Origin: a virus
DNA: 64,000 nucleotides
IMG/VR virus record: IMGVR_UViG_3300028415_000003
Coordinates: 6,814-70,813 of that record
Reading direction: 5' to 3' (one strand)
Each line of letters opens with the position of its first letter. The first letter of the stretch is position 1. The position numbers and the translations under genes were made by a program. Below the pieces are notes generated by a model that made no database searches, was not told the DNA's origin, and saw only the letters and a program-made list of their open reading frames with translations. Below, in pieces: positions 9,989 to 64,000 of the stretch.

Positions 9989-10005
9989 GTGGGTGGGTAG
10001 TTCAC
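9989..10005 (+). repeat. Solo IS200/IS605 right-end motif GTGGGTGGGTAGTTCAC
   Basis: Identical to 62396-62412; near-identical to 59214-59230 and to the tnpB element right end (GTGTGGGTAGTTCAC on the - strand ending at 48425). Confidence 0.7.
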
Positions 10006-31300: not shown

Positions 31301-34300
31301 GCTTCAACAGCATTAATTGACAGGGCAGCCAATGATACAGATATAAGAAAGTTAATTGATGATCAGATGGTTGGTTATATTTTGTTTGAATCTGCTGTAA
31401 AATCAGGGAAAAGAAAAATAATAGATTTTGATGTGCCTATAGGAGAAATGCTAACACTTCAAAATGTATCAATAAATAAAAGCTTAAACAATGAAAAGAA
31501 CAGGATTAAGATAAATAATGACGCTTATAAAATTCAGACTGTTACAAAGCAAGATGTGATTGAAGCTGAAAAAGTTATCCCTACTCAGATTCTTAGTGTT
31601 ATCGGTGGCTTAGATAACGAAACAAATGAGACAATTGTAAAGGAAGTAAACCATGGATTAGCCGGTACTGCAAATATTATTCGAGAGAAACTTGTTTCTA
31701 TGAGTTCAGGCAAAAGCATAGAGTACATGAAAGAGTTGTTGCATTATACTGCAATGAAGCGTGGAGATACAGGAAAAGCAGGGCGGGTATCTGCATGGGC
31801 AAGTCCTGATGTTTCAAGAAATAAAGCTATTGCTGCTTTTCTTACCGCAGTGAATAAATATATAAAACCAAATATGGCCGGACAGTCTTTTGTTCAAGCT
31901 CCGGACCTTGGTAATATGTATTTTGATAAAGACGGGAATGCATACTTGCCTTCTGATCTTGATCTTGATGATGATTCTCAAAATGTTGATGGTAAAGTAA
32001 GGCGGCCATTAAAGCCAATACTTTTTATAGTAGAAGGCAAAGAAACAAAAACTGACGGCACTTTATTCACAAAAGAAGAGCTTATTGAAGCTCAAAAGGC
32101 AGGGAAAAAAGTTGAGATTAAACCTGCTGAAGTGATTGCTCCTTTTGGCTACATGAAAGTATTCGGAATTACTCGTAACACTACGCTTCGTGATGTTATG
32201 AGTGTAGTCATAAATGGCAAGGAAGTGAAATTTGATAATGCAAATCCTGAATATAAAGACGTTCAGAATAAAGTCAATAAAGCTTTTGAAGGAATGGAAC
32301 TGGACGGCATACTTGATTCCTTCCATCCTGATATCAGAACAGAAATTATCAGAAGGTTTACACAGTCTATTCGTGTTAATGATAAATATGATCTGCTTGA
32401 TACTATTCAAGAAAGCAATCCGAAACTATACAAAGAAATCGATAAGCAATTAAAAACTCTTGATGAAGAAGGAATTCCTGGAGAAGGTAGCAAGGCTTTT
32501 GGTTTAATGATGAACGTGATATCCAATTATTATTATAACCTGAATAAAGCTTTAAACGTATTTGGGGTCCGTATTCCTACGACCAACGCATCTTCAGGGT
32601 GGGTCGGTCGTATTGTAGCTTTTGACTATGAAAGCGAAAATACAGTATATACTTCTGCAGAAAAGAACATTCTTGACGGTTCTGATTACGATATTGACCA
32701 AGTTTCTATGTATTTCCTTTCTCTTGATGAATGGGGAAATGAAATAACTCCTGATTCAGTCATTAAAGAAAGAATGAAGGCTGAGAAAAAAGCACATAAA
32801 GAAACAGGTAAACTAAAAGAGAAAGCAGAAGATCCGAATTCAATTGATGAAATAGATGCAGATTATTCAAAGGCAGAAAAATTTGATACTAAATATAATG
32901 GGAATATGATATTCACTGCTTTGCAAAAGTTTTATCGTGAGTCCGGAAATATCGAAATGATTCTTGAAGAAATTAATCTTGATAGTTTCCGTGATAAAGC
33001 GGACCTTGTTCCTCAGGAATGGCAGGAATTTGTTTCTGATATTAGTTCTAACATGAAAGCTTCAGAGATTAATCTCTCAGGGCAAAAGCTTGTAGGGCAC
33101 TTTCAAAACCTTGAAAAGTTTACGCTTAAATTGTTAGCAATTCCAAAAGCCACAAGGGATCAAATATTGCCTCCTGAAAAGTTTAAAATGTTTTCAGGTA
33201 ATAAGGCTATTTCTGAGCAGATCGCTTTTGTTGCAAAGCTTATTAATGCCGCTACCGATAACGCCAAAGAAGGTGGACTTCTCGGTAGACTGAATATTAC
33301 AGAATCAACTTCACCTATTGTGAATGGAATGGTGATGGCCGGTCTTTCAGAAAAAGAAATACTAGATATTTTACAGAATGAAACAATTTTAAATGCTTCT
33401 AAAAAGAGCATGACATCTAAGTCTATTACCGGGTATAATGATAATGGAGTTCCTGAAAACGCACAATATAAAATAATTCCTATATGGGAAGCCATAAGTG
33501 AATATATATCAGGAGATTATTTTGATACTCCCACACACCAAATAAAAGATGAAAAAGATCGCTTTCTCGTTCAAATTCGTGAGTATGCATATATGGGAGA
33601 GCAATTGCGGAGATTTGGAAACATTACTAATATTCAACAGGAGATTAGTATTGAAAATTCTAAGCGAAATAATGTAATCAATAGTATTAATGAAGCCATT
33701 GGAACCACTGATGCAGATGAATATATTCAGCGCAGGCTTGCAGGAGAATCTACAACTGGAATTATGAATATTCCTACTGACGGGCATGAGTCAAATATTA
33801 GAAAACAATTTAATATTGGTGATGCAATGATGGAAAACGAAATGCTTTATACACATGTAAGAACACTTGCTCAGGTACAAAAAACAATTAATGAATCTAT
33901 TACTACAGATAAGGTTATTAATAAAGCCAAAGGAACAATTGAAAAACGTCTTGGGCAAAGCATTAATATTCCTGTTGTTTATGAAACGATAGAACGTGGT
34001 ATTGAAGATTATATTGTCGGCCAGTTTATTGCTGATAATTTTAAAGAAGTAACGGTTGGAGATCAGGCTTATGACTTATCGTTAGCAAAAAATAGGGTAA
34101 GATTTAGTATGGATTTCCCTTTATTTATTGAGGAATATACTTTTAACTGGTATAAAAATGCACCAAAAGGGAAGAAGAATAATACTTTCTTGAGAAGGGT
34201 TAAGCAGCGTAGTACAAAGTCCGGCTACCTTTATCTTGATTTTTCTTCATCTAATGATGTGAACGATACCCATAAAAAACTGTACCGAGATCATTTTGAG

Positions 34301-37300
34301 ATAATTGATGAAAGTGTTAAAAATGCTTTTAGAGCGTATCAGTTATTAATGAATGGGTTCCGTTATAAGAATGGGTCTATGATTGATTTTACGGATGAAA
34401 AAGCAGAACGCCAATACACAAATTGGATTCAATCTTTTGATCCGGAAAAGATAAATGAAAACGATCTTGCTGAGCAGGTTATTCTTCGCAATAAGGAACT
34501 TGTTCATTATGCAGCGGACACCGAAAAACTTATGAAAAAGTTGAAAAAGAATGATATCATTACGTCATTGATTTATTATACGCCAAAAAAGGCATCTTTC
34601 AACCCACACATTTATAAGTTTGATATTAAAAAAGGAACTAAAGAGTATCTTAACAGTCCTTATCCTACATTGATAAACACGTATTCTGCTAAATCTGAAA
34701 CAACAAATCTGCCTGTTATTGACGCTCTTTCCAGCAAGGAAATGAGAACGTTTAAGAATAATGATTCTGTTATAATCAAATCATATTTTCCTATAGTTGT
34801 ATGGCACCAAAAAAACAACGACTACCCTTACTCATTATCAAACAAGGATCAAGCTGTGCTTCAAGATGGAACTGTTGGAAATGTGGAAATTGTCGGTCCT
34901 AAACATAAAAAAGACAATCTAACAAATACAAGTATAATAAAATTCACTAAGGCAAATAAGCCTCAAGCTTCAAGGATATCTAAAAATCAAAGTAAAGCTT
35001 CATACTATGTTTTAAAGTCATTCATGGATAAGTTACAAAAAGCTTTTCCAAATATCCGCATTAATTATGTGAATAACATTACGAGCAAACATCCTGAATT
35101 GATAGGGTATTTTGAGAACGGACAGGTCTTTTTCAATACAGATAAATTGCAGCTTGACACGCCTATTCACGAGATTACTCACGTGTTCATTGACATACTT
35201 GAAAGTGCAAATCATGAACTGTATCGTGCTCTTGAAAATGAAGCTATAACTTTAATTGAAAGTAATCATGAGGTCGTTCAGGAAATCCTTAAAGAATATG
35301 CAGATATTTCAAAAGTGGATCTTGTTAAGGAAGTTATTGCAACTATGGCCGGATGGAATAGCCAGGAAGCCGTCAGAAATCTTTTAGACAAGACTCCGGG
35401 CATGAACTCTGATCAAAAAGCAAGTACGCTATATGGCAAAATTTCGGCCCTTGTCAATCGTTTTTATACATGGTTGAAGAATGCGGTTTATGGCGCGTTA
35501 GGTGTTCAGCAAATAAACAGTAGAACATTAAAGGATTTCGATTTTAAAAATGCTACTATTAAATCATTCGCTGAAATGATGGTTAATGCTGTTAATAACG
35601 GACAGGTTCTATCGTATGTGTCCTCAAAGCAAATGAGTAATATAGCCAAGGCTGACGTTTATGCTTCAAAAATTAAAACGATTTATGATGTAAAGAAGAT
35701 GGCCAAGGTGCTTACGAACCCAAGTGACAGGTTTGATTTCGAGGAAATGTCAACTGATGCTAAGGTCGATTATGTTTACAATCTTATTGATACTAATACA
35801 GGTAAAATCGGGGCTGGTCTAACTGGAACAGAATATAATTTCAAAGGAATGACAGTAGATGAAATCAAATCTACTATTCGTAAAAAGGTTATTACTGAAT
35901 ACGAAACTCGTGATAATAAATTTAAAGCGAAAATAAGTAACTGGATTAATGAACATGAAGCTTCTGTGCATGATTCTATAGAAACTTTTGGAAAAACTAG
36001 TAACGATATTCCTATTTATAAGGTTCCTATTCTCAAAAAGTTTAAAAAGCAGATTGAATATGCTTCATTTAAAGAGTTTGGAAGAGTTTCTGAGCTTGAA
36101 AAAATGGAAGGTGGAGAAGAGATTGCGAAGCATTTGTCAAAAAGTATCCGAAGTTTCGATCCCCATATTTCAATAGAGAAAACGTCTGACGGTTCAATTT
36201 ACGTGTCGCTTTATGATATTACCATGGACAATATCGACAGGCCGGATATAGAAAATGAGCTTGGCAATATTGCTTCTCGATTTTTAACGGATAGAGAAGC
36301 TAAAAAAATGGGTCTGTCTATGACAAATAACCCAGGTGATGTTCGTCAGCTAATGCTTGTTTTAATGGCAAACAAACTAATGAATGCTAATCCTAATATT
36401 AAGATTAAGGAGGCAGGAGTTATCAGTCTTAAGCCTTCAGGTAGCCAAATGAAAATGATTGATTTTTTAAAGGTTAATAAGAACATTAGTGTATTGTCTC
36501 AAATAGATGATTTTATAAATAGTTTGAGTCCGGAATTAAAAGAATTGTTTAAGCAGGAATTAAAAATTCCAAAAGTAGATTATGAAAAGCTTCTAAATAA
36601 TTTTTATGAAAATGCAGCCGATAACTCGTTCCCTAAATATATAAAAATGCTATTTCAGAATCCTGAAAATTATACTGTTATACAGAAAAAGAACCTGTTA
36701 ATGGCAAGACTCAGATATGCGCTTGAAAATAATGACGAAACAAATAATTATCGTCAGGAAATTAATCTGCTTACGCAGACGTTACTTGATCTTAAGACGG
36801 TAAATGTGGTTGACACTGAAATGAATAGTGAGGATATGTCACTGCTTAGTGATATTGATAAATTCATTCAACCCGGACAATATATTGCCAATGATATCAT
36901 TCAGGCTTTACGTGAAATAACCCTGGACACTTCCAATAAAATTGTTGAAGAAGTTCAGGAATTTCAATCTGAATTTAAGCCTATTCAAAAATGGTTTGAG
37001 AGTAGAAATAGTGGTATTTCAATAGGTTTTGGAGATAAGTCTCACAGGTTTTTCAAAGATTTATTTGTAAAACGTGACATTGACGGTTCTGGAAACGAAG
37101 TTTTTACTGGTGAAATATTCTGGACTACTGATGAAACAAAAGATCCTGTTAACGCAAAAAAAGCAAAAGAACTTGGTCTTTCTGCAGAACTATTGGAACA
37201 GGGAGAAAAACTTGTGAATATGATTACGGATCAATATATCGACCTTGTTTATCATTATCATGAAATGCAAGGATATATGAAAAATCTTAAAACTGGTAAG

Positions 37301-39160
37301 CCTAATTATAATTTTACAAAGAAAGACGCTTATGAGTCGTTAATGCAAAATTCTTCATATCAGAAAGGGATGCTTCCTTTAATGACAAAAACTTCTGAAC
37401 AATTATTTAATGAAGGAGAATTAGGGAAGTCTAGTAAAAAACGGCTGAGTCAGATTACTAACAACATGAACATGTTTGATGATGCAAATGATCTTTCAAA
37501 AACTGACGTGAAAGAAATAAATAAGCTTTCTGATCAATTCTTTAATCAAATTGGGTACATGCGTGAAGGCAGTAACACAAAGTTTGGTAGCCATGCAAGA
37601 ACTTTTGATATTCTTGGAATTGGGAAAAATTCAAAAGGAGAAATTGTTCTTGACAGTCAGGAGAAAAACAACAATATCACTACTGATATTGAAACAATTA
37701 TGAATTATTTTGCCATGAGTTCTAAGCGAAAGATTCATTATGAAAACGATGTGCTACCTATAATCAATGGAGCAAAAGTTTTTATGACAGATATGAAAAA
37801 TCATAAAGATAAAAATCTGAGTAATGAAATTGATTATGTGGAAATGTTTACGGAAATGTCTATTCGCGGACAACGCCGTAACCTTGGTGGTGATATTGGA
37901 GGAGTAGAGCTACAACCAACAATTAGTACACTTTCAACTGTTGGTGGTACAATTGCGCTTTTCGGTAATGTGAATGTTGGTGTTGTATCATCATTAATTA
38001 ATGGAATGCACTCGTTCGTGGAAGGAATAGCGAACCAGTTTGTTGAACGTGGGATATTTAACTTTTCGGATCTTATCAAAGCAAACAGGTTAATATTCAG
38101 CGAATGGGGGAAGATGTCTGAGCTTTGTAAGATGTATCAGAATATTTCAATGAGTGAATGGGAATTAATTTCACATCCTCAAAATATGAGCAAAACGAAA
38201 AAAGGACAGATTCTTTCAAGGTATTGGGGTCATATGTTTAACTATGCTTCTGACTATTATGGTCGTAATCTGGTAATGATTGCTCAAATGGTGCATGATG
38301 GAACCTGGGATGCTCATGAATTTGATAGCGAAACAGGGAAGATTAATTACAATCGGAAAAAAGACAAGCGTTTTTATGATGAAAACGGACAAATGACTGA
38401 AGACGGAAATGTACTGTATGAAACAATTCGTAATCAAGTTTATAAAGATGGATTCAAAGGACAGAAAAAAGAAGGAGAACTTGTAAGGGCTTATACCCGT
38501 AAAGAATCGAGGAAGTTTAAAAATATTTCTGATATGTTTGTTGTGGGAGCTTATACGGATAAAGAAAAAGTCATGTTGACTCACTATACACTTGGCCGCT
38601 TCTTCGCTGTATTCCGTAATTACTTATTTACACACGTCCAAAATGCAGTAATGAAAGGTCATTATATTGGTGATGTTGGAAGGTACAAAGTGAAAAAGGA
38701 TGCTCATGGCAAGCCTATGGCTGAATGGGAAAGACTTTACATGGAAGGATGGGTCAGAACAGCAACACGAATGATTGGCGATGTGGTTAAAACAAGAAGT
38801 CTTGACAACTTTAAGAATATGAGCGAATCTGAGAAATACAACTGGTTAAGAATTGCATCAAAAACATTGATGGTTCTTGGTGTTTCTATGCTTTACAACA
38901 TGTCTGTGAAAGACGATGATGATGATAAAACAGGTTTCGTTCCGGATTGGAGAATCCTTCGAAACATAAAATATTCTTATGCCGGTGTGTTTGCCTTGTT
39001 TGATAGTGGAATTATCTCAAGTCCTTTTGCAATTATTTCTGTATTTAAACGAATACTTACTAATCCTATAGGAGAATTTGAAGTTGAAAATATTCAAAGA
39101 TTTGCTCCGGGATATACAACAATAGAAACACTTTATGAACCAATTAAAAATGAAGAATAA
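19343..39160 (+). CDS. Giant virion-packaged RNA polymerase polyprotein (6605 aa) with SF1 helicase and zincin-like domains
   Basis: Two-barrel RNAP catalytic DxDxD in GSDYDID (DYDID at 32684-32698) preceded by RIPT; TDG motif ~31016; Walker A GFAGTGKTT (23594-23620) with IFDE, LGDDNQ, VYRS and TGVSRA; HEAMH (27479-27493) and HEITH (35168-35182). Confidence 0.88.
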   Translation: MQSKTEQTQINIPEKESLEPPEQKVKSKDKDINSQNSFLQEQNDEPPLMDFSYALRVYDYNIADVKQDELRTKVTYAMPSPKQFAENNPRLANDEEAFNTMYSIIEDKWRLYKDGDFSQWSTEDIYVPDNKYGDYLKRKTGQNYPSFIQYDDPKPVSQTSRRFPGIGTVEIATADEVADKTPFIKDKEGRVLPVDYENLETQYFNDFKRVQNLEKGIDFFWQEAKDGERIAGDKIRSALGPRHLESSWYKAIPRGLWSGTAPMMVRGSGQFIEVIGDLIDPSDQDKWSDRVGTNSLNWANKYSKQNYDEMEGAFNNWSSFRYQVMNGIGQISSTVLLNYATGGMFSSLGLSTQLSGKIAKHFGMSFMAAEAAGAFREEAKNLGIGEFDSALLFPLIMAATYASERVIPADWEHQGFSRYTKRNLRKTINNEFKEYAKTTGIPITSIGKNGKETLIKRSLNKWKEGFKNWGPKSGVSRSFLGAFDESLEEIGEGYMHSGIKDLYNLYADAEASETLNRYNESSWKESDNPDKMIEILSDGSEVEIPKKEYEAIQKDIELSTKIKNKEGGMFDDTSVNFEEGAIAGISSLLTGLPINLMQQRKEDNSENKFIELALALENGDIKDKDLDAAIKEAKKDGVLGSKVATENGDVVNVKGTTKDGQPAETQANQSKRIVRESIGVFRDIIKRYGINSAEVLKATMGDKSVIKEATKIARKLDEAKKALEALEVDPSIFTEEDSQKYNSVEEKTKKLEADVERYSKKFADATQPKEGGKYSKTYSSLYFESAQVFYGAEKKLKKKILDKDFDGKKYENLTLEERDKYKKKLNKQRKDLVETQRPQILQDIYQFQALRSASGEEVHKQTQALFDEVAENYLKEEERVLKSTQDRFDKSILSDEKRESVDKAITDLEKQVGEIANYKEGSEVSLSEKFENTKKSYRKIQNFIADVEIGALHGDAKAQQWLGELEGMRAQSEAAVDQALGNLNDMFGEVNEANKVDPELLDADREVASGNTELFNRLRNKRGKSIENLTVEEQLEVLNQIIEKHPVFLDEKKEDPSTLESVFRKYKEMMDNKVAVMNPASMEKHLEQIKAVLTTLRNQFEMNVELMQNDIEANENTAEHSPLRDKPYQRIDQGTRPVLNKEESISEGESNYTQIIEKIDNYLNTVKDVKEYVAQTKSSRDSYKVKAKSLHLGARVFALNGFMEIDSKLNIKELDDIEKVLNEHNVKTINELLYLFSKSKKEKQEEIQGAITKIERLIVQAETFLEGKMDNVLKELAEGATTFTALKDFVYGSAISPNENSGLLSESNLEVGKKDFNSENKNTDLGELYQYIMISKALQINRFGGKDFSKEDLYAIYRDMLSEKEQKGSDEFVPNYEQEQALMEIVSFLFDPKFDSFKNFLSEDEHDTMIRNGLYVRGFAGTGKTTIVLKNSIQLLSKLKGRGVKVTIVSPNRNLQSNIDKDLQDVSEIETSNNILLSEFLEGKASIDPDSDIVIFDEISVITRDQSNIIKDKLNNSQIPSLFLGDDNQVSDLSYTDDQGAVLTPKMPIMEKTQRTIPMTEVYRSGVSDLHYIQDYYRNLRTTASEGDRTDLPITSFSGEGASMKGVRYMETTQEIEEAFMDYMKNNPNAPVTEVMLIVKNKAERDEFLRKHPEYENHVRTVEFIIGNEENAISGIASRHVFFATNPVVTSTPNGIVTESRIGLTGVSRASESLVMIGKVSKSKKTDKVPESESINTEEISEIRQEEIRRLHEITSKKAPGNKTDNEDNEIDSKSDFRSINLTEDGKNQVIVESEEKINELKNKGVSALKDLNSEDPTLTHITESLFEKTGNENANTRSRNSMVKAALLYNFNSSETNEKAFRERIQEYFEATETKYTEDELFSILSNSLFASKEILDILDEDLTLVNLPFVSGDKIAMPAIVKIVGYSNGQPVVDVYDFRITSGKSITKLSEYDKKKLAAYADILRANGLKINNLKISNIVETFEKKGDSVSLEYFYGKTLKLDSEEAISLMSFENENEANETFVGQEEFFENERSLTENKGFKLGQLIQDKDSLIFHKLHGITSKRIEGKIVTQYHIETENGNIKAVNQSEFESQYQVPNTEDPVTRFKTTAEDFENGVDTNTTNTFFVTDAEAVKILGENSSSVPVEDFYNPDKNVVYARKMLLVKYFYPGVRVTKEYRDGGKVFGMKNGQMVRFEYDGKIAINRMSEKDIDKALDLLNSYGEEITKQEFIDQGLDIVSADFEPEFNFGAVDKTNTEGKVRSIQPKAYNTYMEETDDSKAEALLDKMFENAFDNDDNLATREALIEMNKERMRRLRSEEKVESVVNSVEPGKIIRVFDDFIPIKNLIDKLVKKRQVIEAKDQDNMYVISESKRQKNGKWRNTITIKLDGVGELTFLIDRKIVKNNKDLDYFLQDLSEVEDLIKAYEENFKDLSNKEKADLFKEVEESVLFRFVKTNANILNNYKDQLPLRFNDKGVSIKGSTPLQKIKSLKSIAKFISSAIANNSIDQYFRYPAKNKSGKIDIAHFESIVHDVTQPNLNLEFNRISKSAPKEQETKKHEPVKPESISSLDLSSRTSLTIDDINNNSVEDIVSAFETIGATIDEFEAEILSEAKKGDADMNEILEALNQKLSDDEEYPKLVSTENKLSFVSLEKARETLRSIIGDLTDTNVFFHNGYLYTKDGQRALGLTRDALIKLAMLDGKTSSQTVRHEAMHFIINNMVKPGQRKKILETARKEMEDNGEKINSESDIHEYISKLYENSENIKFKNLLQRFIMWLKKVANQFGAYHYTFDEILYLADQGYFKDRHALSSNENTFYKVENEHNSEESIKYLESRIGDVQLVDWVKNNIFIPEFIEQSPFGRGLNENKTVGEALLALYNKYDSIDEKTREKLSRVLDRDGSLNFEKIKRMFNTPLGRKYLKRDIYPVLLSDKKIFASMTQIALGRVNLNALVDFKRKKALDSESVSGASGQKLVEAESFDPNLSRSEFQKMLLQSIPIYDEGKKAKVEYNGNIVYYANPNTMDHILIDAANRLKQMGKRHFTDQEFFDMLEKMKNETDKSKYKTLIYSFMSTFGNKKFADSEGNADLNFRMQNNGYQALAEDEQVSLEKRKRYRDIVSGFISYYSSLGNVSLALVNLTEKQSWEVKSSADDKVMKAYIRESMKTHFIGQGGFLNKDVSEVFDSANQKNLSVTKEGIFFNGKLYIKGDIKKQSPMAISIILNNLKLNKKGIFTQRIIEELNKEVIGQSSEKGNKNWSMSLGQYLHAITAGLQARVIVDKEYTKHFDNGGKARDLKFSKETKAALDLAKSLYQKASIQWDSVEQNTNRTSERSGVPDLPSPADFYMYYEYIGNLMKQYNADIGTRMIVNSEGNFEYSHPLSSNLYDAAMGGSRSLIAHVSDLSKKDYVSNLPRKIKNENIDPVSPIIGNNGYNNPILANVISVDPIQKFDGIKTFLRSGGIDKMTDKDFAKVIIEELTYKQIIKGGNESVLPSLYGTLADKKNRSVFNVVSERNPIFFKSFAEGYDFLEELGVNYTGLANSIDLFVNYYEKTNNLALGRWNNVLGKNFKSTESLQKYIEEGLSAAETKVIINQLTEKKDYFEKFNPETRTIKITGLGNSIITEDSNIIYKPSFIAEWRKTNTIKDLIKRGRKQQELLEKATLESRQQFAEWIADSGYKMTSKMTDLFKQFGYNMESGEQISDMIEKHIEELREKEKKRKEIGYKIGERKKIEAEIDKLRGTEKKEALKEAEENLEQFDQQFKNLNEMYGTLKKEIKAIQQKHTKESRKIRKQIIENKYQSEGNQIHPLIDIAFWNFHVLNESMDQIVRGSQTNYANLTDFIKRGSSLTGPGTHVDTSRKDGVGKTANTLILRDIPGLQKQFSEKFEEELHTDGLSIVNPIWAEMLKRSAGQEFGNVHNGMLKPMIFDYNPVTDDLIYAKLSQMPINNRQFRNNKIFKQMFEMMVGEELMPYFMEEYENNGQDIRKASTALIDRAANDTDIRKLIDDQMVGYILFESAVKSGKRKIIDFDVPIGEMLTLQNVSINKSLNNEKNRIKINNDAYKIQTVTKQDVIEAEKVIPTQILSVIGGLDNETNETIVKEVNHGLAGTANIIREKLVSMSSGKSIEYMKELLHYTAMKRGDTGKAGRVSAWASPDVSRNKAIAAFLTAVNKYIKPNMAGQSFVQAPDLGNMYFDKDGNAYLPSDLDLDDDSQNVDGKVRRPLKPILFIVEGKETKTDGTLFTKEELIEAQKAGKKVEIKPAEVIAPFGYMKVFGITRNTTLRDVMSVVINGKEVKFDNANPEYKDVQNKVNKAFEGMELDGILDSFHPDIRTEIIRRFTQSIRVNDKYDLLDTIQESNPKLYKEIDKQLKTLDEEGIPGEGSKAFGLMMNVISNYYYNLNKALNVFGVRIPTTNASSGWVGRIVAFDYESENTVYTSAEKNILDGSDYDIDQVSMYFLSLDEWGNEITPDSVIKERMKAEKKAHKETGKLKEKAEDPNSIDEIDADYSKAEKFDTKYNGNMIFTALQKFYRESGNIEMILEEINLDSFRDKADLVPQEWQEFVSDISSNMKASEINLSGQKLVGHFQNLEKFTLKLLAIPKATRDQILPPEKFKMFSGNKAISEQIAFVAKLINAATDNAKEGGLLGRLNITESTSPIVNGMVMAGLSEKEILDILQNETILNASKKSMTSKSITGYNDNGVPENAQYKIIPIWEAISEYISGDYFDTPTHQIKDEKDRFLVQIREYAYMGEQLRRFGNITNIQQEISIENSKRNNVINSINEAIGTTDADEYIQRRLAGESTTGIMNIPTDGHESNIRKQFNIGDAMMENEMLYTHVRTLAQVQKTINESITTDKVINKAKGTIEKRLGQSINIPVVYETIERGIEDYIVGQFIADNFKEVTVGDQAYDLSLAKNRVRFSMDFPLFIEEYTFNWYKNAPKGKKNNTFLRRVKQRSTKSGYLYLDFSSSNDVNDTHKKLYRDHFEIIDESVKNAFRAYQLLMNGFRYKNGSMIDFTDEKAERQYTNWIQSFDPEKINENDLAEQVILRNKELVHYAADTEKLMKKLKKNDIITSLIYYTPKKASFNPHIYKFDIKKGTKEYLNSPYPTLINTYSAKSETTNLPVIDALSSKEMRTFKNNDSVIIKSYFPIVVWHQKNNDYPYSLSNKDQAVLQDGTVGNVEIVGPKHKKDNLTNTSIIKFTKANKPQASRISKNQSKASYYVLKSFMDKLQKAFPNIRINYVNNITSKHPELIGYFENGQVFFNTDKLQLDTPIHEITHVFIDILESANHELYRALENEAITLIESNHEVVQEILKEYADISKVDLVKEVIATMAGWNSQEAVRNLLDKTPGMNSDQKASTLYGKISALVNRFYTWLKNAVYGALGVQQINSRTLKDFDFKNATIKSFAEMMVNAVNNGQVLSYVSSKQMSNIAKADVYASKIKTIYDVKKMAKVLTNPSDRFDFEEMSTDAKVDYVYNLIDTNTGKIGAGLTGTEYNFKGMTVDEIKSTIRKKVITEYETRDNKFKAKISNWINEHEASVHDSIETFGKTSNDIPIYKVPILKKFKKQIEYASFKEFGRVSELEKMEGGEEIAKHLSKSIRSFDPHISIEKTSDGSIYVSLYDITMDNIDRPDIENELGNIASRFLTDREAKKMGLSMTNNPGDVRQLMLVLMANKLMNANPNIKIKEAGVISLKPSGSQMKMIDFLKVNKNISVLSQIDDFINSLSPELKELFKQELKIPKVDYEKLLNNFYENAADNSFPKYIKMLFQNPENYTVIQKKNLLMARLRYALENNDETNNYRQEINLLTQTLLDLKTVNVVDTEMNSEDMSLLSDIDKFIQPGQYIANDIIQALREITLDTSNKIVEEVQEFQSEFKPIQKWFESRNSGISIGFGDKSHRFFKDLFVKRDIDGSGNEVFTGEIFWTTDETKDPVNAKKAKELGLSAELLEQGEKLVNMITDQYIDLVYHYHEMQGYMKNLKTGKPNYNFTKKDAYESLMQNSSYQKGMLPLMTKTSEQLFNEGELGKSSKKRLSQITNNMNMFDDANDLSKTDVKEINKLSDQFFNQIGYMREGSNTKFGSHARTFDILGIGKNSKGEIVLDSQEKNNNITTDIETIMNYFAMSSKRKIHYENDVLPIINGAKVFMTDMKNHKDKNLSNEIDYVEMFTEMSIRGQRRNLGGDIGGVELQPTISTLSTVGGTIALFGNVNVGVVSSLINGMHSFVEGIANQFVERGIFNFSDLIKANRLIFSEWGKMSELCKMYQNISMSEWELISHPQNMSKTKKGQILSRYWGHMFNYASDYYGRNLVMIAQMVHDGTWDAHEFDSETGKINYNRKKDKRFYDENGQMTEDGNVLYETIRNQVYKDGFKGQKKEGELVRAYTRKESRKFKNISDMFVVGAYTDKEKVMLTHYTLGRFFAVFRNYLFTHVQNAVMKGHYIGDVGRYKVKKDAHGKPMAEWERLYMEGWVRTATRMIGDVVKTRSLDNFKNMSESEKYNWLRIASKTLMVLGVSMLYNMSVKDDDDDKTGFVPDWRILRNIKYSYAGVFALFDSGIISSPFAIISVFKRILTNPIGEFEVENIQRFAPGYTTIETLYEPIKNEE

Positions 39161-45253: not shown

Positions 45254-45384
45254 TGTTAACAGCACCTAACAAAAAGCGGGGGCGACCTGCCTCGTAGAAA
45301 CATTTGTGGTTTATTAAATTTCATATCTTCGTATTTAATTTTGTAGTTAATTCCCCGCCTTCTGTTAGCCGCAAACCGTTGTAA
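45254..45384 (+). repeat. attC-like recombination site
   Basis: TAAC-AGCAC-CTAACAAAAAGCGGGG (45266-45281) ... CCCCGCCTTCTGTTAG (45353-45368)-CCGCAAACC-GTT (45378); both stem mismatches are G:T pairs on the bottom strand. Confidence 0.72.
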
Positions 45385-45626
45385 AAAACAACCGAAATCA
45401 GATATAATTCGTTTTAATTAATGTGCCCTCGCCTTCTCACCAGTTTCATTTCAGCGTGTAAAGTTTCGTTTAATTTTAGGTTATAAATTGTTTTTTCCAT
45501 TTCGGTATATTTATTAAATACTATTTTGTTATCCATAATTTTAAGTGTTAAATTGTGAATGATTTAAATATTGATCTTTTTTTAATTTACATGATTATTT
45601 TATTTTAAGTTTGTAATTCTAATTCG

Positions 45627-47831: not shown

Positions 47832-48010
47832 TTAAACAATCATTCGTGATGAAAAAATAAAAAACCCCACCCGCATTTTTAGTAAATCAAATCAACATCT
47901 TTTTCGTTTTCAGAGAAATACTTTTTCAGGTAGTCAGCACCGTATCTATCCAAAACTTGTTTGCTTGGTTTATAAAAAGACCTTTTTGTGTCAGCGTTTT
48001 GCCCCCATTC
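47832..48010 (-). pseudogene. Diverged duplicate of the 3' end and downstream flank of the 44569 gene
   Basis: Encodes ...YGADYLKKYFSENEKDVDLIY* (stop 47879-47881) versus YGKDYLQKYFSENEKDVDLIY*; the flank CATTCGTGATGAAAAAA...GCATTTTTAGTAAATC is also shared. Confidence 0.8.
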
Positions 48011-48383
48011 GCCTTCGCCAAGCCCGAAAACGTTGCCTACAATTAAAGAAAAACGGAATAAACAAAAATCTGTTTTTAGGTGTATCGCTAGTTTTTCTAC
48101 TTCCGTATTTCACTCTCATTTCTAATTCAATCAACTCTTTTGGTTTCGCTAACTCTCTATCAAGCTCACACCTTAATTCAATCATTTTTAATTCAAATTG
48201 TATCATATATGGTGGTTTTTCCCAATAAGGAAGGGATAGGTAGTGCATAGCAAAAGCATCTTCTTTTTCTTGTGCTTTATAGAAAGCATCGCACTGTTTG
48301 GGGTGTACTCTTTTTAATATTCGGTGGCTATTGCCGTTACTATCTACATACTCACCGTAAGATTTCTTATTTTCTCTTTTCAT
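47991..48383 (-). CDS. Hypothetical cassette-borne protein
   Basis: Lies between GTTGCCTACA (48032) and TGTGGGTAAC (48410-48419), complementary at 8/10; reads through the R box because CAA sits where TAA would be. Confidence 0.5.
   Translation of the reverse strand: MKRENKKSYGEYVDSNGNSHRILKRVHPKQCDAFYKAQEKEDAFAMHYLSLPYWEKPPYMIQFELKMIELRCELDRELAKPKELIELEMRVKYGSRKTSDTPKNRFLFIPFFFNCRQRFRAWRRRMGAKR
48009..48041 (+). repeat. 3' arm of an attC-like site
   Basis: CGCCTTCGCCAAGCCCGAAAACGTTGCCTACA parallels CGCCTTCTGTTAGCCGCAAACCGTTG at 45356-45381. Confidence 0.6.
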
Positions 48384-48424
48384 TTTTAATATAAATTATC
48401 GTTAATAACTGTGGGTAACACTGT

Positions 48425-49769
48425 GTGAACTACCCACACACTAAAAAGATGTGTGGGCTTCCTGTACAACGCATAGCCTAATGGCTTACGTTAGCGTACA
48501 AAGGGTTGTCCCTAACCCCGAAATTTTTTATATTATACGCAGCGTTAAGGTCTCTATCTATTGAATTATTACACTTATCACAATTATATGTCCTATCTGA
48601 AAGTTTTAAATCTTTCTTGTGGTTTCCACAATTAGAACATACCTTACTGCTCGGTCCAAATCTACCAATTACAACAAGGTTTTTACCTTGCCAATCAGTC
48701 TTATATTCAAGCATTGTTCTTAATTGTCGCCAACCCATATCAGATATTGCTTTAGCTAAATTATGGTTCTTAACCATATTACTAACAGCTAAATCTTCCA
48801 AAACAATCGTATCATACGTGTTTACTAATTCAGTAGATATTTTATGCAAGTAATCAGTCCTTTGGTTACGGATTTTTTCTTGCAATAATGCTACTTTTAA
48901 TTTTTGTTTTTCTCTATTTATCGAACCCTTTTGTTTTCTTGAAAGGCTTCTTTGTTCAACTCTTAATCTTCTTTGTTGTAATTTAAAGAAGTTTTTGTTT
49001 TCATATACTACGCCATCAGAAGTAATTGCTAAATCTTTAATACCAAAATCAATACCAACAGACGTTTCTGTTTTTATACTTTTTTGTTTTGGTTTTTCAG
49101 TTTGAGTATCAACCAATATTGAAACAAAGTATTTACCAGTTACCGTTTTCGTTAGTGTAACTCTTTTTGGTAAGCCTTTAAATTCTCTATGGTAGCCAAT
49201 AGCAACTTCTTTAAGTTTAGGTAATTTTAAAATATTATCCTTAAATGATATTTCAAATCCTTGTGGAAATGTAATTGACTGTTTAGAGTACTTATTTTTA
49301 AATTTAGGGAATTGACCCCTACCTTTAAAAAAGTTTTGGTATGCAGTATCTAAATTAATTATACTATGTTGTAAAACTTGGCTTGGACACTCTTTAATGT
49401 AATCAAACTCTTTTTTTAATTCTGGCAGTTGTTTAATTAAATCATACTTAGATATTGATGTTTTATTTGAAGCATACGCAACACTCTTAGTTTCTAAACC
49501 AAGGTTATACACCAATCTATTAACTCCAAAGTACCTTTGTAATTGGGCTTTTTGAGTTTCCGTTGGAAATATTCTGTATTTGTATCCTTTTAGCATATAT
49601 TATTAAATAGTCTAAACTTTTGTAAAAGTACAATATTTTTTATCTAAAATCAAGTTCTGGTTAAAATTTGTTTAATTGATACCATTAAACAATACATATT
49701 ATCACAAGGCTAATAGTCGCTTACATCCCATCCACGCTAAAGCGATGAATGGGTTTTACGCTCCAACGT
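48425..49769 (-). mobile_element. Non-autonomous IS200/IS605-family (IS1341-type, tnpB-only) element
   Basis: On the - strand: TTTAT target motif (49774-49770), left end with hairpin CCCATTCA-TCGCTTTAGCG-TGGATGGG, tnpB, right-end hairpin CCCACAC...GTGTGGG ending GGGTAGTTCAC; no tnpA. Confidence 0.88.
48478..49596 (-). CDS. tnpB: RNA-guided endonuclease TnpB
   Basis: N-terminal YKYRIFPT HTH; RuvC GIDFG / LEDL / DRDLNAA all intact; Zn ribbon CSNC...CDKC. Confidence 0.95.
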   Translation of the reverse strand: MLKGYKYRIFPTETQKAQLQRYFGVNRLVYNLGLETKSVAYASNKTSISKYDLIKQLPELKKEFDYIKECPSQVLQHSIINLDTAYQNFFKGRGQFPKFKNKYSKQSITFPQGFEISFKDNILKLPKLKEVAIGYHREFKGLPKRVTLTKTVTGKYFVSILVDTQTEKPKQKSIKTETSVGIDFGIKDLAITSDGVVYENKNFFKLQQRRLRVEQRSLSRKQKGSINREKQKLKVALLQEKIRNQRTDYLHKISTELVNTYDTIVLEDLAVSNMVKNHNLAKAISDMGWRQLRTMLEYKTDWQGKNLVVIGRFGPSSKVCSNCGNHKKDLKLSDRTYNCDKCNNSIDRDLNAAYNIKNFGVRDNPLYANVSH

Positions 49770-49851
49770 ATAAAGTAATGCCGAAATGATTGGTAAATCT
49801 TAATAATTGTATTTGCATGATCTCTCGCTTTAATAATTCAATAACTATAGA

Positions 49852-49859: not shown

Positions 49860-49934
49860 AAAAAAATGATAACATAATCAAAATAATGACAACTAAATAA
49901 ATAAAAAGTAAGTAAAACCGTTGCTATTGATTGG

Positions 49935-49942
49935 TATATTTG
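49935..49942 (+). promoter_or_regulatory. Bacteroidota -7 element (TATATTTG), divergent
   Basis: Matches TAnnTTTG; ~75 nt upstream of a bidirectional terminator. Confidence 0.4.
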
Positions 49943-52542: not shown

Positions 52543-52687
52543 AAAAATGCTACGGAAACACACTCATCAGCTTTGCTGTGGGTGTGAGGAAAGTAGCTAC
52601 CCCTTTGTTAAAATTAATTATTTCCTTCAAATAATGTTCTAAGTTCTAAAACCTAACCTATCGCTTTTGCGTAGGTGGGTAGTTTAT
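52543..52687 (+). mobile_element. 145-bp miniature IS200/IS605 derivative (LE + RE, no gene)
   Basis: LE-like GCTACGGAAACACACTCATCAGCTTTGCTGTGGGTGTGAGGAAAGTAGC hairpin; RE-like ACCTATCGCTTTTGCGTAGGTGGGTAGTTTAT; removal restores the ATGA overlap of the flanking genes. Confidence 0.72.
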
Positions 52688-59171: not shown

Positions 59172-59230
59172 ATTAGGGAGCATAAAACCCATTCATCACT
59201 TTTGCGTGAAGCCGTGGGTGAGTAGTTCAC
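59172..59230 (+). mobile_element. 59-bp miniature IS200/IS605 derivative inserted in dnaB
   Basis: TTTAT (59167-59171), then GGAGCATAAAACCCATTCATCACTTTTGCGTG (matches the tnpB element left end) fused to GTGGGTGAGTAGTTCAC (right end). Confidence 0.85.
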
Positions 59231-60560
59231 TCCACTCATTAAATTTACAGTATTTTAGGTTTTCTAAATAACGAATTAGACCAAGTTCACTTTCCCTGTT
59301 TTTCGTCACGTCAAGAATAATCAAGTGTTCAAATACATTGTATTTTTCTTTGGACACTCGAAGTTTCTCTGCTATTTTTAAATCAGGAAATAATGAAGGG
59401 CGGTTCATAAGTATAACCTGATTTGCATAATCTGCAATTCGAGAAGATCCCCGTACATCTGAATCTCTTAGTCTGTAACCTTCAGTCATGCGTTTTTTGT
59501 TCTGTGATTCCTTTGTTACGTGGTGAATAACGATAATAATGCCTTTGGTATAGTCACGTAATTCAACCAATTTTTTGGCAATTAAATCATCATTCTCCAA
59601 TTGATGTTTCTTGTCAATTCCACTGACAAGACCAAGGTTATCAATAATCAAAACATTGGCTTTGGTTGGTCTCAAAATACAAAAGCGCTTAAAATCATTG
59701 CATATCTGATAGATATTTTTCGGTTTGGTAATGAACTCTACATCATCCTTATCGTATTGATTGTAAATCGCTTCCATGTCCTTAATATTACGATCAGTTA
59801 AACTGTGATTTCGTGATTGAATTTGGCGTTCTGTTAAATTTAAGTGACTGCTAACAACATTACGAAGAATAGCTTCACCGGATACTTCATAAGTGTGCCA
59901 GTTAATTGCTACATCTTTGTTGTGTTTTAATAAGTTAAAGGCATAATGAATAGAGAATTTTGTCTTTCCTGCCCCTTTTTGAGCAGCAATTAAAATGATG
60001 TTACCAGGACTAGTCGCTATGAAATGGTCAAAGTTTTTGTCTCCGGTTTCTAGGTAAGGCTTTTTTGCTCCAGATGCTTTCATTCGTACATCTTCAAGCA
60101 TAGACTTGAAAGATAATTTCAGTGTTTTTTGATCCTTGCTGTTTAAAGATAAATTGGAAATTTCTGTTTCGATTTTTTGTGTGATTTCGTCAGCAGGATA
60201 TTCTCCAAGCATTTTTTTAATTGTTTGGCTGAGCTCTAAGAGTTTCTTTTCGTTGTAGTTACCAATAATTACTGAGAGGTGATATTGCCATTTATCTTCA
60301 TCCTCATATTCGGTATTTATAAGGTTTTTGAAAATATCAATGTAATCTTCATTACCGCTTGATTCAAAAGCGTCAGTCATTGTTGATAAGCAGATTTCTT
60401 CATCTTGTTCTGAGATTAATTTGTAAATCGCCCAGAACATTGCATTTTTTTCATCCGTAAACATTGTTGCAGTAAGCTTTTTCTCTATAGAATAGTACAC
60501 TGCCAGATGATTAAAGCATTGTTTTAAGATGTTTTTTTCATAATTTTTCTCCTTTACCAT
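59196..60560 (-). CDS. dnaB: Replicative DnaB-like helicase (C-terminus altered by mini-IS)
   Basis: AAQKGAGKT, YEVS, IIDNLGL, DVRGSSRIADYANQVI, KNRE. Confidence 0.88.
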   Translation of the reverse strand: MVKEKNYEKNILKQCFNHLAVYYSIEKKLTATMFTDEKNAMFWAIYKLISEQDEEICLSTMTDAFESSGNEDYIDIFKNLINTEYEDEDKWQYHLSVIIGNYNEKKLLELSQTIKKMLGEYPADEITQKIETEISNLSLNSKDQKTLKLSFKSMLEDVRMKASGAKKPYLETGDKNFDHFIATSPGNIILIAAQKGAGKTKFSIHYAFNLLKHNKDVAINWHTYEVSGEAILRNVVSSHLNLTERQIQSRNHSLTDRNIKDMEAIYNQYDKDDVEFITKPKNIYQICNDFKRFCILRPTKANVLIIDNLGLVSGIDKKHQLENDDLIAKKLVELRDYTKGIIIVIHHVTKESQNKKRMTEGYRLRDSDVRGSSRIADYANQVILMNRPSLFPDLKIAEKLRVSKEKYNVFEHLIILDVTKNRESELGLIRYLENLKYCKFNEWSELLTHGFTQK

Positions 60561-62340: not shown

Positions 62341-62412
62341 GTGAACTATTCACTCACATCAGTTGACTTCTGAAGTCCATCCCATTTCTTCTGGCGTGGG
62401 TGGGTAGTTCAC
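62341..62412. repeat. Back-to-back pair of IS200/IS605 right ends
   Basis: GTGAACTATTCACTCAC ... GTGGGTGGGTAGTTCAC (inverted, 14/17). Confidence 0.7.
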
Positions 62413-63152: not shown

Positions 63153-63938
63153 TTACCACAATCGTAATTGACGTTTGAACGTATTAAAACGCTCTTCTTG
63201 CAAGCTCCAGTATTCTTTATCTATTTCCCAGCCTCTAAACTCGCAATTTGCTAAATCAGCTTCTATGCGTATCGAGCCACCGCCTACGTGGGTATCAAGT
63301 AGCTTCATTCCTTCAAAGCCGTAATCCGCAATTAATTTTTTATACAACAGTTGTGGTTTATGGCAAGGATGCAATCTCTTTTCATTCAACTTCTTATTTC
63401 CTTGTTGCGTCATAGGTTTTTTTAGGCTTTTAGCTTGGCACATTCCAGCCCACAACAAAGGCAATTCAATTTCGTGGTCAATCAAGCTACAGTAAGCCAT
63501 TTCATATTTTTTGAAACTCATACCTTCTGCTACGCCTTTGTTCCACTTAATACGCCCTGTGCCTAATCCTTGCCAATCGACATATTCTATTCCAAAAATT
63601 ATTTGCTCCTTACTAACTCTCTGCAATTCATTAAAGTATTCCTGTGAAGGTAGCTCTTTGTCCCATTGCTTTTGCGTATATGGCTTTTTGTTTTTGTTGC
63701 CGTTTAGCCTTGTTCCATTTTTCTGCTTAACTGTTGTGTTCGTTTCTTTAAGATAAGCCATATTCGCAACATCAATTCCGTAAGGTATATCGCAAATTGC
63801 TAAATCGAAGTAGTTATTTGGGAAGCGTTTTAATCCTTGCATACAATCTTCATTGAACACAATAGAAGGCACAGCAGGTAACAACGTGTCATACTGCATA
63901 GCCTCTGTATTTTCGGTGTTTATATCTCGTTCAATCAT
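63153..63938 (-). CDS. DNA methyltransferase (N6-A/N4-C, beta class)
   Basis: NEDCM, DLAICDIPYG (motif IV variant), HPCHKP, LDTHVGGGS, GWEID. Confidence 0.88.
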   Translation of the reverse strand: MIERDINTENTEAMQYDTLLPAVPSIVFNEDCMQGLKRFPNNYFDLAICDIPYGIDVANMAYLKETNTTVKQKNGTRLNGNKNKKPYTQKQWDKELPSQEYFNELQRVSKEQIIFGIEYVDWQGLGTGRIKWNKGVAEGMSFKKYEMAYCSLIDHEIELPLLWAGMCQAKSLKKPMTQQGNKKLNEKRLHPCHKPQLLYKKLIADYGFEGMKLLDTHVGGGSIRIEADLANCEFRGWEIDKEYWSLQEERFNTFKRQLRLW

Positions 63939-64000
63939 TTGTGTATTTTTAAAAGTTTGTGGCTCGTTTCAACTGGCTACGCAGCATACACAAACCGTTA
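63874..64000 (+). repeat. attC-like recombination site
   Basis: GGTAAC-AAC-GTGT[C]ATACTGCATAGCC ... GGCTACGCAGCATACAC-AAACC-GTTA; one extra C in the left arm (extrahelical G on the bottom strand); mismatches are bottom-strand G:T. Confidence 0.78.

Follow-up and report, generated by a model that had tools for sequence, protein, structure and literature searches.

Organization of the locus and limits of the element

The stretch of DNA analyzed here (hereafter the window) consists of 64,000 nucleotides, bases 6814-70813 of the 70.8-kb IMG/VR virus record IMGVR_UViG_3300028415_000003, a record that is 81% complete. In the spacer between a helicase gene and a small cassette-like open reading frame (ORF), ORF130, the window carries an insertion sequence (IS) of the IS200/IS605 family (IS605 group), which is 1345 bp long, lies at 48425..49769 on the minus strand, and contains tnpB but only a remnant of tnpA. 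It is the only full copy of this element within the record. The spacer resembles a junction between gene cassettes bordered by attC-like hairpins, and the sequence that abuts the right end of the element is the predicted guide of TnpB.

Seventeen IMG/VR loci with a related element (L003-L019) could be collected, 14 of them at 85-97% protein identity. The limits 48425-49769 are based on the points at which homology to these relatives stops and on the conserved left-end junctions, including that of a mini-copy in the window. When the element was compared by blastn together with 60 nt of flank, homology stopped no more than 1 nt from the right end (48425) in 11 of the 14 loci bearing a right end, and it extended past this end by 4, 5, and 19 nt in L004, L009, and L010, respectively. 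The terminal GTGGGTAGTTCAC is present in all copies of the element and is followed by unrelated flanks. Six independent left-end junctions were available (the window, the mini-copy at window 59172, L005/L006, which are identical and were counted once, L010, L011, and L016), and these carry TTTAT in five cases and TTGAT in one (L005/L006), exactly 5 nt before a conserved GGAGCG. A pattern match to the left end at L012:6040 was dropped as unrelated sequence.

On the evidence of these junctions and of two further ones in a metagenome run (X9), the TTTAT at 49770..49774 (minus strand; ATAAA on the plus strand) is the insertion target and the predicted transposon-associated motif (TAM). It is a common motif, with 465 occurrences in the 128,000 strand positions of the window (0.0036 per position). 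Imperfect subterminal hairpins mark the two ends of the element, which lacks terminal inverted repeats and a target duplication; its flanks, TTTAT and ACAGTG, occur unrepeated on either side. The left end (49717..49769, minus strand) folds into an imperfect hairpin, CCCATTCATCGC...GCGTGGATGGG, which is kept in L005/6, L010, L011, L016, and the mini-copy. The right end (48425..48560, minus strand; 5' limit approximate) contains a terminal hairpin, CCCACACA...TGTGTGGG, together with the predicted omegaRNA scaffold, and overlaps the 3' end of tnpB. An earlier description made from the sequence alone (the original prediction) had proposed the same limits and a TTTAT flank at the left end. Both proposals were borne out, the limits by the 17 related loci, the mini-copy, two metagenome junctions, and a variant allele, and the motif by five of the six left-end junctions and the two further junctions beside TTTAT.

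Short derivatives of the ends are also present in the window. The 59-nt mini-copy (59172-59230, plus strand) consists of the 5' arm of the left end joined to the right-end tip, has TTTAT ahead of it, and overlaps the final codons of a DnaB-like helicase ORF (59196-60560). Additional right-end-like tips (GTGGGTAGTTCAC or close to it) occur at 9993-10005 and 52675-52687 (both plus strand) and at 62341-62412, where two tips face each other in a 17-bp hairpin (-31 kcal/mol). A similar pair of tips is found at approximately 1189-1252 of L007/8/13/14.

TnpB protein and loss of tnpA

The tnpB gene (48478..49596, minus strand) encodes 372 amino acids with the RuvC residues D183, E267, and D349 and a CxxC...CxxC zinc finger (C320, C323, C339, and C342). 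Pfam matches were obtained to OrfB_IS605 (1.2e-27), Cas12f1-like_TNB (6.5e-22), and HTH_OrfB_IS605 (1.8e-14), and residues 3-358 could be aligned to the ISDra2 TnpB chains 8bf8/8exa (E 6.6e-58). In this alignment, D183, E267, D349, and both CxxC pairs coincide with their ISDra2 counterparts; the three acidic residues stand opposite what we take to be the ISDra2 catalytic triad, D191/E278/D361. The presence of all three RuvC residues and of the zinc finger supports the proposal that TnpB is catalytically intact, as far as an alignment can predict it. The closest protein relatives are all metagenomic, and the host could not be inferred from tnpB, the top match among 185,579 species genomes having an identity of only 46%. 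One metagenomic protein (P0032, 593 aa), 79% identical to TnpB, contains an extra PF02086 (D12-class adenine methyltransferase) domain and may represent either a fusion or a gene-calling read-through.

Only the last 11 codons and the stop codon of tnpA are left, at 49678..49713 (plus strand). They were identified by tblastn with the 134-aa Y1 transposase of L006, to which 10 of the 11 residues at 49678-49710 are identical. A full, divergent tnpA of 134 aa is present in 10 of the 17 related loci (L005/6, L007/8/13/14, L010, L011, L016, and L019), and in all of these except L019 its position between the left end and tnpB was recorded, whereas the Y1 transposase family PF01797 was unmatched anywhere in the 70.8-kb record. 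The window copy is therefore a non-autonomous derivative that arose by internal deletion of tnpA and retains both TnpA-recognized ends. In L004, L009, and L012, the left end has been lost too.

Predicted right-end RNA and guide

An alignment of the final 180 nt of 13 copies contains 39 consensus pairs, 16 of which show compensatory changes, and the terminal hairpin is part of the consensus structure, as is a long stem at AAGCC/GGCT. The single-sequence fold of the right end in the window has a z-score of -2.97, and no Rfam family covers this RNA in a search of the window. Such a conserved structure matches what would be expected for an omegaRNA scaffold.

By analogy with ISDra2-type TnpB, the 16 nt that directly abut the right end, ACAGTGTTACCCACAG (48409..48424, minus strand), would serve as the guide, which agrees with the original prediction that the guide is taken from the right-end flank. 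This sequence contains an R'-type GTT core (48417-48419; AAC on the plus strand) and the 5' end of the ORF130 cassette, and its conserved counterpart in a metagenome contig (L022), GTTACCCGCAG, precedes the ORF130 homologue there. No second match to the guide with up to three mismatches was found in the window. The right-end tip (GTGGGTA) and the right flank (UACCCAC) form an inverted repeat at 48409-48437. In L007-type loci, by contrast, the flank repeats the tip in direct orientation (cGTGGGTAGTTt).

The cassette-like ORF130 and the interrupted junction

ORF130 (47991..48383, minus strand), which lies downstream of the insertion, has no Pfam or PHROG match. No relative was found in the viral contigs searched and one was found in metagenome contigs (L022). 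This homologue, with 75% identity, lies between GTTACCCGCA and TGCGGGTAAC and forms part of an array of attC-like sites, in which a covariance model of such sites (R1) has 8 matches within 4.4 kb.

On the minus strand, the right flank of the element reads AC-AG-TGTTA-CCCACAGTT, in which TGTTA corresponds to the R' box and CCCACAGTT fits the R' tail of the attC-like hairpin family (GTTACCCACAGT in L087 and GTTAACCACAGTTAAT in L130). Because TTTAT and AC fill the seven L' positions (TATAGCC in the family) and TGTTA is the R' box, the insertion can be placed, by alignment, within the L' box as expected from the family, with 5 nt separating it from the GTT of R' that follows. At the other end of ORF130, the sequence AATTGTAGGCAAC (48032..48045, minus strand; AATTGCGGGTAAC in L022) appears to be an R''-type end, being complementary at 10 of 13 positions to the 5' end of the cassette (48407-48419). 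Within it, GTTGCCTACA at 48032-48041 pairs with the flank at 48410-48419 in 8 of 10 positions, or 10 of 13 when extended. Taken alone, such pairing is at chance level, as 158 inverted pairs of at least 10 nt occur in 2.7 kb, and neither arm motif is repeated in the window above chance. In L022, however, the corresponding ends are complementary at 11 of 13 positions and differ from the window by one compensatory change from A-T to G-C. Similar complementarity between a cassette's own ends is present in five other cassettes of L022 and in a methyltransferase cassette of the window (13/15). These comparisons partly support the view that the right flank represents the 5' boundary (GTT core) of a small ORF130 cassette.

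The original prediction had regarded the right flank as an attC-like arm whose R'' pairs with the sequence at 48032. What stands is that an R' GTT coincides with the predicted 5' boundary of the ORF130 cassette, that the insertion falls in the L' position, and that the complementarity with 48032 exists (8/10); the site is non-canonical and its 5' half has decayed. Canonical attC sites follow the consensus RYYYAAC/GTTRRRY and have a total length of 57-141 bp. Since the two arms are 368 nt apart with ORF130 between them, and since neither GTTACCC nor GGGTAAC at the insertion site fits the strict consensus, they do not form one canonical attC hairpin. The same R' consensus, GTTRRRY, is given in the available part of PMC9892861. 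The comparison of cassettes suggests a better reading of the pairing, in which the 5' end that a cassette has after GTT is complementary to the R'' that the same cassette has at its 3' end, before AAC.

The R' GTT is present at the insertion site, and the matching R'' can be proposed only as a candidate (9.4 bits with the covariance model). This weak candidate for the 5' half of the interrupted site is a remnant after the helicase gene (49878..49935, minus strand; E 0.083 in a 341-nt search), which contains AACGGTTT (49922-49915), in a match with 3 mismatches to a 13-mer, approximately 150 nt upstream of the junction and on the same strand. After ORF130, a diverged attC-like site (AAC, GGCTTGG...CCAAGC, GTT) was recognized by eye at 47945..48047 (minus strand); it is likewise weak, reaching only 4.4 bits with the covariance model. 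A canonical integron was ruled out, since no tyrosine recombinase is found in the record and no Rfam match in the window or in 10 array loci. Our first view, that the resemblance to attC is pure chance, was abandoned after the evidence from the array, the model, and the cassette ends.

With the element in place, its right end (TAACG...TTAGGCTATGCG) and the flanking R' (window 48407-48495, minus strand) match an attC-like profile by nhmmer with E 0.027, on par with the site at 63871-64000. This match is gone after in-silico excision, and its GGCTATG part is not conserved in the L010/L011/L015 subfamily; the score is probably due to chance.

A family of attC-like hairpins in Bacteroidota-type phages

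In L022, every small ORF has TAATG-N6-7-AAC-GGTTTGGCTA behind it, and the cassette's own end can pair with the bases that come after the next GTT; six cassettes in this co-oriented array have 5' ends that match their own R''. The 16-mer AACGGTTTGGCTATGT was found in 95 IMG/VR stretches, and 25 of the 80 loci fetched carry at least two copies on one strand. The sites of the family measure 78-122 nt, and a common structure could be derived from 29 short ones. This structure consists of a 5-bp R box (tAACg/tGTTa), GTTT unpaired opposite two bases, an 11-bp L box (GGCTATGTGcc/ggCATATAGCC; GGCTATGTG/CATATAGCC), and a variable loop, and the AAC and GTT, paired as the R box, are invariant in 28-29 of the 29 sites. 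In this structure, 95.3% of cells are paired, compared with 87.0% in shuffles (0 of 500 reach the observed value) and 31-46% when the sequences are slid.

The family was detected in L022 (370-3800), in the IMG/VR loci L087-L166, and in L182 (NC_028924), and its arrays hold as many as 8 sites within 4.4 kb. In 3 of 13 pairs, at least 8 of 10 positions of the post-GTT tail can pair with the R'' of the cassette that follows; random pairs reach this level in 0.8% of cases, and comparisons within the same site in 1 of 80. This automated test is noisy, as the pattern-based site finder skips sites. Such complementarity with the next cassette is the pattern that would be expected from a crossover at G|TT of circular cassettes. 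A tyrosine recombinase is encoded in two of five array-bearing phage records, one complete 44-kb record being without it, and no Rfam match was obtained in 10 array loci. On the basis of these sequence comparisons, a family of attC-like hairpins with cassette-type end complementarity appears to be widespread in Bacteroidota phages.

L182 is Polaribacter phage P12002L, in which the covariance model identified five sites between methyltransferase genes (29996-30068, 30897-30967, 32211-32293, 38023-38102, and 38867-38948 of NC_028924), all with E no higher than 0.024. The best match, 29996-30068, equals the P12002L_attC1 primer sequence in Table S3 of PMC9892861. According to the available part of that paper, P12002L_attC1 was predicted by HattCI only, and among the six phage attC candidates assayed it alone was not recombined by IntI1. 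Within the literature searched, it is the only member of the family found to have been described earlier.

The window itself contains two further sites, both on the minus strand. The best (63871-64000; 33 bits, E 2.7e-5) runs to the end of the window, and the second, weaker one (45255-45393; 17.1 bits, E 0.21) comprises AACGGTTTG and TTGTTAGGTGCTGTTAAC with a 97-nt loop. A methyltransferase gene (63153-63938, minus strand) starts inside the loop of the former site and is flanked by GTTACCTGCTGTGCC and GGCATTGCAGGTAAC, which form a GTT...AAC inverted repeat of 13/15.

Insertion alleles in lake metagenomes

The stretch is contained in 24 lake and salt-lake metagenome runs, four of which were compared in detail, all as contigs. 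Junctions between the right end and phage DNA were found at 48424|48425, 47971|47972, and 47583|47584, on the same strand and all beside TTTAT. Two junctions additional to that of the window come from run X9 (47583>48425 and 47970>48424), directly beside ATAAA on the plus strand. Their short sides measure only 29-30 nt, but that both of them adjoin a motif whose frequency is 0.0036 per position speaks for genuine junctions. The insertion at 47971|47972 lies just 5' of the L'-like box of the diverged site after ORF130. In runs X14 and X15, a separate insertion of 1291 nt with IS605-like ends occupies 47848|47849 on the same strand. Thus, two of the four IS605-type insertions in this stretch of approximately 1 kb lie in the 3' part of attC-like sites, and the other two are 11 and 34 nt upstream of ORF starts. 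The polymorphism of these insertions in the phage population indicates recent mobility. Moreover, in run X16 the sequencing depth over the element is 5 to 28 times that of its flanks, and the IS lineage is therefore abundant beyond this phage.

An allele resembling the empty site was also observed. In X15, a 15.7-kb contig covers 47849-48421 and then reads GGT ATAAAGT, so that TTTAT is contiguous with the right flank. Exact flank searches in IMG/VR yielded no left-flank and no right-flank matches in a collection that may omit records near the window, and relatives of the helicase (L020 and L021, 54-59% identity) were too distant to be used for an empty site at the DNA level. The search for an empty site, proposed along with the original prediction, has thus succeeded in part: the X15 allele has TTTAT abutting the flank, whereas no contig joint between 48424 and 49770 was obtained.

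Genomic context

The plus strand of the window contains terminase, portal, and major head protein genes, and a minus-strand block contains genes for helicases, a primase, a Sak4-type annealing protein, a DnaB-like helicase, and methyltransferases. The terminase is approximately 30% identical to those of crAss-like phages (Bacteroides, Flavobacterium, and Cellulophaga), which suggests that the sequence comes from a crAss-like phage infecting a member of the Bacteroidota. Neither tRNAs nor Rfam families were matched in the window, and the tyrosine recombinase family PF00589 is absent from the whole 70.8-kb record, at its 81% completeness. A single ORF of 6605 aa (19343-39160, plus strand) takes up 31% of the window.

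Proposed mechanism and alternative explanations

Taken together, the locus is probably best explained by a non-autonomous IS605 element that landed at an attC-like cassette junction and whose TnpB would home as in ISDra2-type systems. The element would have entered single-stranded DNA 3' of TTTAT in the spacer between the helicase gene and ORF130. By analogy with ISDra2-type TnpB, a transcript of the tnpB 3' end and the right end would be processed into an omegaRNA ending in ACAGUGUUACCCACAG, with ACAGTGTTACCCACAG as its guide. TnpB would then cut TTTAT-flanked uninterrupted junctions, either after excision by TnpA acting in trans or in a co-infecting phage free of the element, and the element would be regained through recombinational repair from the IS-bearing copy. 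If the empty allele is cut in this way, this would represent standard TnpB homing, and homing of TnpB on vacant sites has been published, according to the available parts of PMC10690162 and PMC10055086. The insertion might also affect the mobility of the cassette, which the original prediction expected to be immobilized. RNA-guided homing between co-infecting phages is directly testable, because an allele with an uninterrupted TAM and target exists.

Several observations weigh against this explanation. The interrupted site scores poorly as an attC-like site and its L boxes are unpaired; nhmmer finds nothing at the junction after in-silico excision, and the distance from AAC to GTT would be approximately 170 nt, compared with 52-96 nt in the 33 short family sites listed. 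The only experimentally tested member of the family, P12002L_attC1, failed the IntI1 assay described in the available part of PMC9892861. With regard to homing, the guide can pair with the scaffold tip (GUGGGUA/UACCCAC), a possible hindrance. The X15 allele has one substitution at 48422 (guide position 3) and diverges upstream of TTTAT, and the four runs contain no contig in which 48424 is connected to 49770 between window-like flanks, although absence from contigs proves nothing. In addition, since the X14/X15 contigs keep the helicase side from 49770 through TTTAT and then carry unrelated sequence before 49770, the history of the junction is not simple. The sequence of the variant allele after 48421 is a candidate for another IS end, on the basis of only 30 letters.

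Part of this evidence would suit a reading in which the flank is nothing more than intergenic DNA, for instance an ORF130 promoter or leader, its resemblance to attC is coincidental, and the landing place was determined by TTTAT and selection against gene disruption. The low model scores at the site (4.4 and 9.4 bits, and nothing after excision) and the lack of motif repetition above chance agree with this, as does the finding that inverted repeats around ORFs of the window are distributed like the background. This reading nevertheless appears unlikely, as the R' (GTTACCCACAGTT) fits the R' consensus of the family and is nearly identical to that of the intact L087 site, the ORF130 homologue belongs to a true array and shares the boundary sequences, with one compensatory change, AACGGTTT is found upstream on the same strand, and the window contains two better sites and a cassette with a 13/15 inverted repeat. 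A somewhat stronger contender, although still improbable, is that the attC-like hairpins act as RNA, in inter-cistronic processing or as terminators, and that the element merely interrupts a transcript signal. Near-invariant G-U pairs (17-106 in 29/29 sites, 28-96 in 28/29, and 22-103 in 17/29), which are tolerated in RNA, the position of the hairpins between co-oriented ORFs, with some enclosing a start codon, and the failure of P12002L_attC1 to be recombined by IntI1 are all compatible with a role as RNA; it is opposed by the complementarity between the post-GTT sequence and the R'' of the next cassette (3/13, against the random and same-site values given above) and by the lack of an Rfam family.

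The original prediction further held that the guide might cut similar attC sites in phages or the host, and it raised a preference of the element for attC. That the element is aimed at attC arms is very improbable. Two of the four IS605-type insertions do lie in the 3' part of attC-like sites, and the loops of folded hairpins would expose TTTAT in single-stranded form. On the other hand, none of the 10 distinct right flanks of the relatives contains an R'-like motif, and next to the element R1 detects no site in any of L003-L019; its lone match (L016, 1365-1516, E 0.23) is approximately 900 nt away. The proposed cutting of other attC sites was not supported either: the guide has no second match in the window, family sites carry TATAG or TTTAG rather than TTTAT at the TAM position, and even the site with the most similar R' (L087) has TATAG there and two guide mismatches. 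In these comparisons the IS lineage shows no sign of specific targeting of attC-like sites. The availability of TTTAT together with selection against insertions in genes is the simplest account of the landing place, and landing appears to be opportunistic, because TTTAT is common, insertions survive only between genes, and the junction is the only intercassette DNA. It is also rather doubtful that the tnpB copy is a stranded relic, neither expressed nor cutting. The loss of tnpA, the additional loss of the left end in L004, L009, and L012, and the partial complementarity of the guide to the scaffold tip would fit a relic, but the ORF is full-length, with intact catalytic residues and 85-97% identity to 14 other viral-contig copies, both ends are intact, and insertions are polymorphic in the population.

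The element itself is ordinary, one more tnpA-less TnpB transposon, and only its landing place is mildly unusual. Its value comes from the setting, as members of one IS lineage occupy several TTTAT sites of a single phage within a natural population. A broader proposal, which we consider speculative and not likely to hold, is that attC-like hairpins of Bacteroidota phages serve as single-stranded landing pads for IS605 elements and couple RNA-guided homing to cassette exchange. If so, the guide would by construction consist of the crossover core and the first bases of the neighboring cassette, and IS-free genomes in mixed infections would be cut at the cassette boundary and converted, with ORF130 dragged along.

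Comparison with known systems

The attC-like family is related to the phage clusters of attC sites lacking integron integrases (CALINs) reported by Qi et al. (2023; PMC9892861), in that it includes P12002L_attC1 and, as far as the available part of that report describes them, its sites also lie between small co-oriented genes, including methyltransferases, with no integrase nearby. Compared with the sites described there, the interrupted site in the window has decayed.

The element most closely resembles ISDra2 and IS608 of the IS200/IS605 family. TnpB is alignable over 356 residues with the RuvC triad, and the elements have in common subterminal hairpins, ends without inverted terminal repeats, a pentanucleotide 3' of which they insert, and a structured RNA at the right end. 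The target pentanucleotide of ISDra2 is TTGAT, as at the L005/6 junction. In contrast to these elements, the window copy has lost tnpA, resides in a virulent-type crAss-like phage, and has close relatives only from metagenomes and viral contigs.

Elements of the IS1111-attC group and group IIC-attC introns recognize attC specifically. Like these attC-targeting elements (described in the available parts of PMC11187229 and PMC7923331), the window element is a mobile element in a putative cassette recombination site. The only published IS200/605 case found adjoins a CALIN and does not lie within attC, according to the available part of PMC7923331. Unlike the IS1111-attC group and the introns, the IS lineage in the window has no attC preference.

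Phage-carried tnpB genes that vary between close phages have reportedly been seen in Campylobacter phages. A tnpB of cyanophage A-1(L) is likewise carried by the phage and varies between close phages, as stated in the available part of a preprint (10.64898/2026.02.14.705889). What distinguishes the present locus from both is that the ends, the target motif, the predicted guide, and an empty-type allele are defined.

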